Part shown: positions 7,021-47,654 of the stretch, piece by piece
Layout of the letters: each line of letters starts with the position of its first letter
Numbering within the stretch: position 1 is the first letter of the stretch
Sequence record: OV696614
Source of the DNA: Escherichia phage Cyrano
Length of the DNA stretch: 64,000 nucleotides
Reading direction: 5' to 3' (one strand)
Notes under the pieces: model-generated
Told to the model about the DNA's origin: nothing
The model's input: the letters and a program-made list of their open reading frames with translations, nothing else
Databases searched by the model: none
Made by a program: the position numbers and the translations under genes

Positions 7021-7095
7021 GATGGTGTAGCTCAGTGGTAGAGCAGTTGGCTGTTAACCAACTGGTCGGTGGTTCGAATCCACCCACCATCGCCA
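7021..7095 (+). tRNA. tRNA-Asn (anticodon GTT)
   Basis: Cloverleaf read by hand: acceptor gatggtg/caccatc, anticodon loop ctGTTaa, T-loop ttcgaat, 3' CCA. Confidence 0.85.
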
Positions 7096-7097
7096 AT

Positions 7098-7173
7098 GCC
7101 GGTTTAGCTCAGTTGGTAGAGCACCTGCCTTGTAAGCAGGATGTCAGCGGTTCGAATCCGTTAACCGGCACCA
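7098..7173 (+). tRNA. tRNA-Thr (anticodon TGT)
   Basis: Acceptor gccggtt/aaccggc, anticodon loop ctTGTaa, T-loop ttcgaat, 3' CCA. Confidence 0.85.
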
Positions 7174-7181
7174 ACACAATT

Positions 7182-7268
7182 GGAGAGTAGAGAGCATGGT
7201 GCTCAAGCGGTCTTGAAAACCGTCCCATTGCGCAAGCGATGATGGTTCGATTCCATTACTCTCCGCCA
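7182..7268 (+). tRNA. tRNA-Ser (anticodon TGA), type II with long variable arm
   Basis: 87 nt; acceptor ggagagt/actctcc, anticodon loop ctTGAaa, long variable arm, T-loop ttcgatt, 3' CCA. Confidence 0.8.
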
Positions 7269-45466: not shown

Positions 45467-46060
45467 ATGATTGCAGCCGAAAAAATCAAACAGCGAAAGC
45501 GCGACAACTCTCTTCGTGACCTCTGGAGAACACCTGACTGGCTGTTTTCTGCCATTCAACGTTATCTTGGAGTGACATTTGATGTTGACGTTGCCTGCAA
45601 CAAGGACAATGCGAAGCTGCCTAATTTCATAGGCGTTGAGCGTGATGCTTTGAAATCTGAATGGGGACAGCCAGGTACAATTGCCTTCCTCAATCCACCC
45701 TACTCCAAAATCTCCCCCTGGATTGATGCGGCTATACGTGAGCAGGCTCGCGGAGTTACAACAGTGATGCTAATTCCTCAATCCCTCGATACAAAGTGGT
45801 ATGAGCGTGCAACAGAGTGTGCGAATGAGACGATTATTCTGTCTGGTGGCCGCGTAGCGTTTGTCGAGCCTGACGTCAATTTGGGTCAGGTAGAAGTAAA
45901 CATCAACCCCGGTGGCAGTATGCTCGTTGTTTTTCGAGGATTCTGTCAGGACGCTGGGCACTCTATAAGCAAGATCCCTTTGGACGTCATGAAAAGTCTG
46001 GGAGGGTATGATCCTGCGAATGTGATCAGGAAAAAAAGACCATCAAAGAAGGCTGCTTAG
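45467..46060 (+). CDS. DNA N6-adenine methyltransferase (phage Dam-like)
   Basis: 197 aa; catalytic motif FLNPPYS. Confidence 0.7.
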   Translation: MIAAEKIKQRKRDNSLRDLWRTPDWLFSAIQRYLGVTFDVDVACNKDNAKLPNFIGVERDALKSEWGQPGTIAFLNPPYSKISPWIDAAIREQARGVTTVMLIPQSLDTKWYERATECANETIILSGGRVAFVEPDVNLGQVEVNINPGGSMLVVFRGFCQDAGHSISKIPLDVMKSLGGYDPANVIRKKRPSKKAA

Positions 46061-46222
46061 TTTGTTCTGGCGTCTGTAATTAGCCTGCTTCTGTATATAT
46101 AAATAACTACATATTAATTATTAATATACGGAAGCAGGCTGTTTTATATCAGAGACTCCCAGACCTGAACACCACTACAGAATCCACTAGAACCCCTTCC
46201 CAGACGCTTTAAAATCGATTTT

Positions 46223-46477
46223 ATGAACCACTTTAAGGAAACCAACATGTCATACCCGACTAATGTCGTTGCGCTCGTAGAGAGCGATTTTCTGGCCCAG
46301 GCTCGTGAAATGATGAAAGATCGTGAGCAGGCTTTCAACTTGTACGAGTGGGCAATTAAGTGCTTGCATCTTGGCGAGCATCGCGAACTTGTTGAACAGC
46401 TTTTAGGTGAGTTGATCAATGAGGTGTTTGCCTTGAATGTTCAACTACATGGTCGAGAAAATAATCAATCACAATGA
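46223..46477 (+). CDS. hypothetical protein
   Basis: 84-aa ORF. Confidence 0.4.
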   Translation: MNHFKETNMSYPTNVVALVESDFLAQAREMMKDREQAFNLYEWAIKCLHLGEHRELVEQLLGELINEVFALNVQLHGRENNQSQ

Positions 46478-47060
46478 TAGATAAGTACAAACTATTTATA
46501 AAGTGAATTGTAAGTGCTAAGATCTGATAGTTTCCAGTCGTAGACTGGAGACTCGACCTGATGGGTGGGGGTAAGCGTCACTGGCGTCAGGTTTAAAAAA
46601 GCTCACTACCAGCGTAGAACCGGCACCGTTTAGGGGTTGGGGAAGGGGGAACCAAAGTGGGCAGAGACAAGGGTCACTTTATGATTGTCGAGTCTGGAGT
46701 GTTTCGAGAGGTTGAATCCAGTACTCCCCTTCATAAAGTGTGGGAAGATCTCGGTTCTGGGGTGCTGTCATCCATAACTTCCCAAGCCTAAGCTGGCAGT
46801 AGACTTAGGTCATAACTTTTCAGGTTATGAAACGACCAGGTTGGTGAGGAAATTTTGTACTCACCTCCCTGGGAGAGTATTACCTGAAAAGACAACCTCT
46901 CACTTCGTTCGAGGTGAACTTCACTCACTTCGTTCGTTCAGTTCAGGTTTATAAAAACCTGTTCTGGGAAGTAATTTGTTTATTTTAATAATTATTAACA
47001 CGCACGCGTGTGCGCACGCGCGAGGAAAAAATCGGCGCGGCGCTTGATTCAGGAGTTTAT

Positions 47061-47654
47061 ATGACGACGAAGACACCAGCCCGATCGCAAGCAAAAACTC
47101 GCAAAAAAGCCAAAAACAAAAATTCTCCCCGCACCAATCCCACAACGTCTGTCGTAGAGTTCAATCCCCAGCTTAAAACCGTGAAAATCTTCAGTGATGG
47201 CTCTTGCCTTAAAAATCCGGGTGGCCCGGGCGGTTACGGTATAGTTCTCCAGTATCGTGGTGAGGAACGCGAGTTCTCAGATGGTTTTCATAGCACCACC
47301 AATAACCGCATGGAGATGATGGGGGCACTTATCGGGCTGGAGCGTTTGAAATATCCATGCAACGTTATTTTGCACTCTGATAGCCAGTATCTGAAAAACG
47401 GCATGACACTGTGGATGAAATGGTGGAAACGCAATGGATGGATGACTTCTGACAAAAAACCGGTAAAGAATGTTGATCTGTGGAAGCGTCTGGATGAGGC
47501 CGCAAGTCGACATAATGTTCGCTGGAAGTGGGTTAAAGGTCACGCCGGGCATCGTGAAAATGAAATATGTGATCGACTCGCGAAGATCGCAGCTTTTTCA
47601 GCAGCAGATATGCCTCACAAGAAAGATATTGGTTTTGTTTATAACAAGTGGTAA
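47061..47654 (+). CDS. Ribonuclease HI
   Basis: Start moved to internal ATG behind AGGAG RBS; basic N-terminal tail then RNase HI blocks [29 protein letters not shown]. Confidence 0.85.

Follow-up and report, generated by a model that had tools for sequence, protein, structure and literature searches.

The gap upstream of the rnhA-like ribonuclease (RNase) HI gene of Escherichia phage Cyrano (record OV696614) probably contains a stand-alone gene for a structured non-coding RNA (ncRNA) of ~455 nucleotides (nt), and not a leader of rnh. The window analysed here is a 64,000-nt stretch of that record, which is an SSU5/pHCM2-type phage-plasmid; the gap occupies its positions 46478-47060, between a 76-amino-acid (aa) hypothetical open reading frame (ORF) and rnhA, and the proposed RNA runs from 46530 to ~46985 on the + strand. 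The best-supported reading is that this RNA belongs to a previously undescribed family specific to SSU5/pHCM2-type phage-plasmids of Enterobacteriaceae. The gap has no annotated feature in the Prokaryotic Genome Annotation Pipeline (PGAP) and phage records, and we found no description of the RNA in the literature on SSU5, pHCM2 and phage-plasmid ncRNAs; the most conserved non-coding feature of these elements has so far gone unannotated. Phage-plasmids of this type are frequent in clinical Enterobacteriaceae and carry resistance genes. The candidate is directly testable: its structure model is clear, a promoter is apparent, a protein partner can be proposed and the host is genetically tractable.

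Conservation and covarying fold of the gap

A first-pass annotation, made from the letters of the sequence and a list of its ORFs, had seen no convincing ORF in the gap, and the present analysis agrees. ORFs between 46478 and 47060 are at most 46 aa long, and stops occur in all six frames (6-9 per frame in the window copy, 3-15 across 14 family members). The short ORFs of 30-46 aa are without conservation and are broken by frame-shifting indels, the indels of the gap among the 14 members being mostly of 1-2 nt.

Conservation was measured on an alignment of 63 distinct SSU5-like loci from IMG/VR and phage records. The proportion of invariant columns per 50-nt window is 72-90% in the block 46553-46946, compared with 54-66% in the small ORF and rnhA. 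On both sides of this block lie the most variable, indel-filled stretches of the region, 46480-46550 and 46950-47000, and the 5' boundary of conservation, near 46551, is sharp. In pairwise comparisons between clades the core is 91-98.7% identical, the small ORF 73-82% and rnhA 72-76%. Variable columns are distributed over the three codon phases as 27/28/29 in the core, 69/61/172 in rnhA and 32/15/69 in the small ORF (of 77 for the small-ORF phases), the last pattern marking the 76-aa ORF as coding. The core itself has no open conserved frame and no third-position excess. Because it has stops in all frames, no codon periodicity and an identity above that of the flanking coding sequences (CDSs), the core is non-coding and under strong purifying selection at the nucleotide level, stronger than that on the neighbouring genes.

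Another explanation of the sharp boundaries of conservation and of the ORFs of 30-46 aa would be selfish DNA inserted there and spread recently (an intron lacking ORFs, a miniature inverted-repeat transposable element or similar), or else unannotated small-protein genes. We consider this explanation extremely improbable, since the element occurs in one copy at all SSU5-like loci examined, and neither empty sites nor further copies on chromosomes were seen; its substitutions track the same clades as those of the flanks; and for small proteins there is no period-3 pattern, the ORFs are unconserved and indels break the frames. A group I or group II intron or other mobile RNA was likewise set aside on the intergenic position, the presence at every such locus and the absence of any intron signal or covariance-model match.

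The conserved block folds. The first-pass description of the region as structure-prone is borne out by the minimum free energy z-score of a 426-nt stretch relative to shuffled sequence, -3.5 for the + and -3.1 for the - strand, and the two hairpins it had singled out both have a place in the model described below: ggtttataaaaacctg (46945-46960) is the tip of the covarying hairpin 46937-46968, and gtagactggagactcgac is part of the 5' hairpin 46530-46552. Its description of the region as G-rich fits the 5' half, since the GC skew across 46400-46700 is +0.28 to +0.33, and does not fit 46700-47000, where the skew is ~0. RNAalifold, run on an alignment (A1) of 50 distinct core-family sequences, gave 128 pairs at -143 kcal/mol for the + strand, as against -115 for the reverse complement; overall, the + strand fold has ~135 pairs. 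The + strand is also singled out by the many invariant G-U pairs and by several pairs that pass between U-A and C-G via U-G.

Covariation was assessed against two kinds of control, shuffled and slid. Paired cells make up 99.6% of the total in the core family, and double compensatory changes are seen at 8 pairs, amounting to 66 compensatory cells; shuffles gave 17.4 +/- 3.2 such cells (0/500 reaching the observed number) and slid controls 1-5. The core-derived structure was then projected onto a 14-sequence alignment that includes divergent members. Here 89.7% of cells remain paired, compared with 35-49% in slid controls; 48 pairs are changed on both sides, compared with 10-22 when slid and 26.3 +/- 2.9 when shuffled (0/500); and there are 120 compensatory cells, compared with 13-36 in slid controls. 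The support extends over individual helices (Table 1). P4, the outer and inner stems of P5, and P6 are invariant in the core family and covary once the divergent members are added, in which they are 97-100% paired with 8, 3, 2 and 6 compensatory pairs, respectively. P1 has 3 compensatory pairs in the core set and 5 in the extended set, where 92.8% of its cells are paired; in the helix that closes Domain 2, one pair occurs as UA, CG or UG, and the extended set gives this helix 3 compensatory pairs; and P9 has one UA-to-GC compensatory pair in the core set and 2 in the extended set. In the 5' hairpin (alignment A6), 8 of the 10 pairs are changed on both sides, though this stretch is poorly aligned. 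Single-stranded motifs also stay conserved when the divergent members are included, namely GGGUGGRGG, CUGGCG, UACCAGCG, GGGRGAAYCAAAG, UUGUCGA, GAUCUYGRUUCUGGG, CUGGCA, CUCACUYCGUUCGAGG and UCUGGGAA; of these, UACCAGCG and GGGRGAAYCAAAG belong to Domain 2, and GAUCUYGRUUCUGGG and CUGGCA are loops of Domain 3.

Because compensatory pairing extends to divergent relatives, we are confident that a structured + strand RNA is the entity under selection. Covariation in homologous regions, the check that the first-pass annotation had named for its long structured ncRNA, thus exceeds both shuffled and slid controls, and that proposal is upheld by the + strand covariation, the nucleotide conservation without codon periodicity and a conserved candidate promoter whose predicted start lies at the base of the covarying 5' hairpin. 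Extreme nucleotide conservation, together with the direct repeat CTCACTTCGTTCG, which occurs twice, and a palindromic GC tract, might be expected of a DNA-level element, such as an origin, a pac site, a recombination site or a protein-binding array, whose conservation is unrelated to RNA. That is very improbable here: compensatory changes keep the helices, many G-U pairs are valid on the + strand only, and the sequence of the 5' hairpin is wholly changed with its pairing kept, whereas a DNA-binding site would keep its sequence. The box motif downstream (below) is, moreover, unique in the window.

Table 1. Features of the proposed RNA and its flanks, in window coordinates.
Feature	Position	Strand	Remarks
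Candidate sigma-70 promoter	46495-46523	+	-35-like TTTATA 46495-46500, 17-nt spacer, extended -10 TGcTAAGAT 46515-46523; predicted start G46530
5' terminal hairpin	46530-46552	+	Clade-specific sequence; always a hairpin opening with G and ending just before CUCGRY
P1 long hairpin	46555-46593	+	Internal motifs GGGUGGRGG and CUGGCG; U-G pairs on + strand only
Domain 2 three-way junction	46601-46662	+	Closed by GCUCAC/GUGGGC; contains G-rich GGGGUUGGGGAAGGGGGAACC
Domain 3 multi-branch	46664-46901	+	Closed by GAGA..GGU with ACC..UCUC; near-invariant in core family
Domain 3 helix P4	46675-46740	+	
Domain 3 helix P5	46741-46784	+	
Domain 3 helix P6	46786-46810	+	
Domain 3 helix P7	46816-46891	+	
P8 3' hairpin	46906-46936	+	Direct repeat CTCACTTCGTTCG twice, 25 nt apart
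P9 3' hairpin	46937-46968	+	Tip CAGGUUUAUAAAAACCUG; conserved UCUGGGAA after P8/P9
U/A-rich tail/spacer	46969-46998	+	Indel-prone, length and sequence vary among clades; small CCUGUUCUGGG hairpin, then U-rich run
Alternating purine-pyrimidine GC-rich tract	46999-47030	+	Ends in box CGCGCGAGG and A-run, 47016-47030
76-aa hypothetical ORF	46247-46477	+	PGAP start; upstream ATG 46223 in ORF listing; constant upstream partner of the RNA slot
rnhA-like RNase HI	47061-47654	+	Pfam RNase_H, residues 40-178, E 8e-44; usual, dispensable downstream neighbour

Distribution, divergent relatives and a sister family

A search with the 700 bases around the gap matched 684 PLSDB plasmids, plus phage SSU5 at 88%. 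The plasmid hosts are Klebsiella, Escherichia, Enterobacter, Salmonella, Citrobacter, Cronobacter and others, and nearly all of the plasmids are non-mobilizable, with a listed size of ~100-120 kb. The RNA itself is found in ~686 PLSDB plasmids and in 232 of 5426 complete E. coli genomes, in the latter as a single copy save in one genome with three matching places. An RNA derived from the host was rejected, since a 'distant' blastn search of the same 5426 genomes at E up to 1 returned phage-plasmid copies only.

A loop-only pattern run on IMG/VR gave 74 SSU5-like matches and 16 chance matches, and a metagenome scan with a motif excluding the core subtype brought in only 4 further real members. 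Pattern scans and hidden Markov model (HMM) searches of other RNase H-encoding phages found no relatives of the RNA; a general link to phage RNase H was dropped, as phages whose RNase H is 38-49% identical (L074-L082), and likewise L065 and L066, are without a homologous element.

The 76-aa ORF proved to be the better anchor for relatives. Its homologues (n = 57) all come from enterobacterial phage-plasmid-like contigs, and each of the 10 homologue loci that were fetched (10/10) has an ORF-free gap of 520-800 nt directly after it. The core-family HMM, run on the fetched loci, scored 500 bits for L362 (Buttiauxella), 361 for L358 and ~165 each for L357, L354 and L353; L360 matched in part (its contig contains Ns), L356 reached 51 bits and L355 matched weakly. 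In L356 (L356:2280-2777) the 5'/middle domain is rebuilt, with an insertion of ~60 nt, and in L355 (L355:2226-3029) the middle domain is rebuilt or expanded within a gap of ~800 nt; P1 and the 3' domain motifs are kept in both. Domain remodelling appears to be the way in which the RNA evolves.

The synteny is shared by 30 Klebsiella phage-plasmids that form a sister group, with RNase H 52% and the small ORF 49% identical. In the same slot these elements carry a different RNA candidate, which we call type B as distinct from the type A of the window (L256:3420-3880 in NZ_CP097685.1; also L257-L272, L359 and L361). It is ~450 nt long, with 131 predicted pairs, 11 of which show compensatory changes among 7 sequences; it has an internal hairpin followed by U7, which is terminator-like, and no Rfam match. 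Searches for homology between types A and B by nhmmer in both directions, with expanded HMMs and with a covariance model of the A 5' domain gave no cross-matches; the two types are alike in the flank after the stop codon and in promoter layout.

Candidate promoter, 3' flank and neighbouring genes

In all A-type clades the 5' hairpin is preceded by the same arrangement, in which ATTTA is followed after ~17 nt by AGTGnTAnnAT and then, after exactly 6 nt, by the G that opens the hairpin, while the surrounding spacer is variable; the -10 of relatives reads TAAAAT. On the other strand, no promoter-like site lies inside 46553-46950, and the two minus-strand promoter-like sites detected, at 46536 and 46502, fall in non-conserved upstream sequence.

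The 3' end of the RNA probably lies in the weakly terminator-like region 46969-46998. The alternating tract that the first-pass annotation had placed immediately before the rnh start does exist, as a CA/CG tract at 46999-47022; it ends 38 nt before the rnhA ATG at 47061 and so does not abut the gene. The only conserved part of this tract, which the first-pass annotation regarded as Z-DNA-prone, is the box CGCGCGAG(G/A) with its A-run, which is kept in all A-type members, rnhA-less ones included. The box might close the structure by pairing, as the 3' strand of a helix, with CUCG at 46552-46555, a pairing in which neither side varies. As a repeated phage promoter or operator it was rejected on its single occurrence in the window.

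The suggestion in the first-pass annotation that the structure might be a 5' leader controlling rnh is not favoured, since homologous RNAs persist without rnhA. In L354 the gene downstream of the RNA is Tad2-like and in L362 it is a minus-strand UvrD-like helicase gene; in L259, L260 and L262, of the sister family, the place of rnhA is taken by a hypothetical gene on the minus strand. The obligatory association with rnhA that a leader or riboswitch would show is therefore lacking at these five loci. As to an expression platform next to the gene, no canonical terminator was found; a GC-rich hairpin and the box stand 38 nt before the ATG, and only the CGCGCGAG core is conserved, also where rnhA is missing. 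Because rnhA is absent or replaced at some loci, a dedicated rnh leader is unlikely and the 76-aa ORF is the constant partner of the RNA, which is linked genetically to that ORF and not to rnhA.

A broader idea is that of a cis-acting leader or regulatory RNA for whichever gene comes next, in most cases rnhA, working through attenuation, processive antitermination (as in HK022 put or EAR), translation control or transcript stabilisation. It draws on the fact that rnhA follows the RNA directly and in the same orientation, both being part of a long co-directional array, on the lack of a strong terminator between the two, on the conserved GC-rich box between the RNA and the next gene, and on the hairpin and U7 of the sister RNA, which could join alternative folds. 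We judge it unlikely all the same. The RNA is kept where the downstream gene is on the opposite strand (L362; L259, L260, L262) or unrelated (L354, Tad2-like), its ~395 nt at 91-99% identity and >130 pairs go far beyond the needs of known leaders, and a variable, AT-rich, indel-filled spacer separates it from the rnhA ribosome-binding site.

Gene context was read from a RefSeq copy that is 100% identical across the RNA. Upstream, the co-directional array comprises nrdA, nrdB, thymidylate synthase, dfrA51, an AAA ATPase, a 3'-5' exonuclease, a hypothetical gene and a Dam methylase. Next come the 76-aa hypothetical ORF and the gap, and rnhA is followed by a pair of hypothetical genes and one for a Rha regulator. 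Genes in other parts of the element specify DnaE together with a primase, a ligase and a DnaB-like helicase, as well as a 5'-3' exonuclease, ParB proteins and an initiator of the RepB family. The RNA locus shows no GC-skew inflection and no switch in gene orientation.

The 76-aa protein is predicted as a 3-helix model (pLDDT, the predicted local distance difference test score, 80.5). A Rop-like or RNA-binding fold was considered for it and rejected, with no fold match in the PDB (best E 4.8). The RNase HI carries a 37-aa Lys/Arg-rich N-terminal extension (47061-47171), and host RnhA aligns only from about residue 38; the sister-family RNase H appears to have a similar basic extension if its start is the upstream in-frame ATG (L256, ~3930). 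In the SSU5 RefSeq record, gene SSU5_090 (L001:4516-5280) gives the RNase H as 254 aa, starting 150 nt upstream of the conserved ATG. This annotated ORF overlaps the RNA 3' end and the spacer, and its start is probably mis-called.

Beyond the RNA, a weak Pfam match to Tad2-like (anti-Thoeris) proteins lies directly 3' of it in L354 (L354:2931-3242) and after the next gene in L353 (L353:3605-3916), and the segment looks like a variable hotspot for accessory or anti-defence genes. On the other side of the 76-aa ORF, a 17-nt inverted repeat (AGCCTGCTTCTGTATAT / ATATACGGAAGCAGGCT, 46082-46140, arms 25 nt apart) directly 3' of the Dam methylase gene may be a terminator or regulatory hairpin between Dam and the small ORF. 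Farther away in the window, the minus strand at 18542-18960 matches the Rfam cspA thermoregulator (187.6 bits, E 7e-50), a match which indicates that the phage-plasmid carries a putative cspA-like cold-shock gene with a long regulatory 5' untranslated region, and three clustered tRNA genes lie on the + strand at 7021-7265, the third scoring 32.7 bits against an Rfam cut-off of 29.

Possible roles and comparison with known RNAs

For a stand-alone RNA gene we propose the following course. The host sigma-70 RNA polymerase would transcribe the RNA from the conserved extended -10 promoter, starting at G46530, into a product stabilised by its 5' and 3' hairpins. This RNA would then act in trans, probably within a ribonucleoprotein (RNP) for which the 76-aa protein is the obvious candidate partner, in the service of the element's early/DNA-replication module. 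An RNP in that module is suggested because of the placement of the RNA and its partner; that the RNA acts in trans as an RNP we put forward tentatively, as a possibility not far short of even.

Several points weigh against a stand-alone, trans-acting RNA. Complementarity to targets was not found within the window, and the model of the 76-aa protein offers no clue to RNA binding. The 3' half is invariant in the core family, so that only ~6 divergent sequences support its helices, and the alignment of L356, the most divergent sequence, is imperfect. The window copy of the promoter is weak, matching the consensus at 8 of 12 positions and falling below what the consensus scan listed; no canonical intrinsic terminator was found after the RNA, which could be made mainly within a longer operon transcript running into rnhA. 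Where transcription starts, where the RNA ends and that a stable transcript exists are predictions from sequence alone, and the trans role and the RNP with the 76-aa protein we purely infer.

Candidate modes of action were compared with the sequence. Antisense action in trans on targets in the window, including the RepB region, was rejected, as 23 complementary 11-mers against ~14 expected, the longest match being 13 nt, is not significant. A CsrA sponge was rejected because GGA motifs, judged by eye, occur at about chance frequency, and a G-quadruplex because the G tracts are not conserved in divergent members.

An RNA-primed (R-loop) lytic origin deserves separate consideration. In such a scheme the folded, G-rich transcript would stay hybridised to its template around the GC box and the AT-rich spacer, to be processed by RNase HI into a primer for the DnaE replisome, comparable to ColE1 RNA II, T4 oriF/oriG and mitochondrial conserved sequence block II. 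The size of the RNA, ~455 nt, is similar to that of RNA II, which is ~555 nt long; the 5' domain has G clusters and a GC skew of +0.33; an AT-rich stretch and then the conserved GC-rich box stand at the 3' end; and the site lies in a replication module, usually beside RNase HI, of an element with its own DnaE, DnaB-like helicase, primase, ligase and exonucleases. We know of no lytic origin for an SSU5-type element, and distinct RNA types in sister plasmid groups would fit specificity determinants. Set against this, the G tracts are mostly paired in the covarying fold and the potential G-quadruplex is not conserved in divergent members, rnhA is dispensable at the locus, no conserved RNA I-like antisense promoter lies inside the RNA and no Rfam RNAI match was found, the GC-skew inflection or orientation switch of an origin is missing, and the RepB-family initiator already supplies replication in the plasmid state. 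We regard R-loop priming as quite unlikely.

A more far-reaching proposal, which we offer as speculation and think rather doubtful as a whole, is that a new class of large RNAs, catalytic or RNP-forming, occupies the site behind the 76-aa ORF in phage-plasmids of the SSU5 supergroup. The class would have split into types no longer recognisable from one another (A, B, and the L355/L356 variants, whose 5' domains are rebuilt). Its members would work with the replication machinery of the element, for example as a structured primer for the lytic origin or an organiser of R-loops there, with processing by the adjacent, N-terminally extended RNase HI, or as a type-specific regulator of copy number or immunity. 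Large, intricate bacterial and phage RNAs without a known function are rare, and several earlier ones are ribozymes or large homo-oligomeric assemblies. A tie to replication or copy control, if true, could explain incompatibility or the lytic-origin biology of SSU5-type elements.

The RNA matches no known family. Rfam 15 was searched with 4227 covariance models, including GOLLD, ROOL, HEARO, OLE, raiA, RNase P, tmRNA, 6S, group I/II introns, riboswitches and RNAI. A scan of the whole window at gathering thresholds gave nothing in 46000-47300, and with E-values up to 10 the best match, a hepatitis C virus stem-loop on the GC tract, had 21 bits against a cut-off of 56. The divergent members gave no Rfam match, and ARAGORN found 0 tRNA/tmRNA genes in 46000-47300. 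The Rfam search proposed in the first-pass annotation, with the large phage-associated RNA classes included, was thus negative.

Among known systems, the closest in general character are the GOLLD (RF01998) and ROOL (RF03087) RNAs, which share with the SSU5 RNA a length of hundreds of nt, many helices, carriage by temperate phages, conservation above that of neighbouring genes and the lack of a function assignable from sequence. GOLLD and ROOL RNAs are ~580-800 nt long. The SSU5 RNA is smaller and narrow in range, restricted to enterobacterial SSU5-type phage-plasmids; it matches neither covariance model at E up to 10; and its place in the replication module is syntenically fixed, behind the 76-aa ORF and ~39 kb away from the tRNA cluster. 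ColE1/pMB1 RNA II resembles it in being a folded transcript of ~0.5 kb with G-rich segments on a plasmid-like replicon, with an adjoining RNase HI gene here, an AT-rich region after it and type-specific sequence variants in sister replicons; the resemblance stops at the antisense RNA I promoter, the RNAI match and the Rop-like fold of the adjacent protein, none of which was found, at the RepB-family initiator of the SSU5 element and at the dispensability of RNase HI at the locus.

With HK022 putL/putR and EAR, the RNA shares a structured segment in or at the head of a long co-directional operon that could act on the transcribing polymerase. These elements are ~70-120 nt long with two or three helices, whereas the SSU5 RNA has ~455 nt and ~135 pairs and persists without a co-oriented downstream gene (L362). 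RNase P RNA, tmRNA and 6S RNA differ in that neither Rfam nor ARAGORN returned a match to the SSU5 RNA, and it has no blastn-level similarity to any E. coli chromosome. Like them, it has a multi-domain fold, apparently a stand-alone gene with its own promoter, and conservation far above that of the surrounding coding DNA. RNase P RNA and tmRNA are, among enterobacteria, more conserved than the coding DNA around them, and by analogy the pattern seen here (RNA >91%, CDSs ~75%) resembles that of complex trans-acting RNAs such as these, unlike that of a simple leader.

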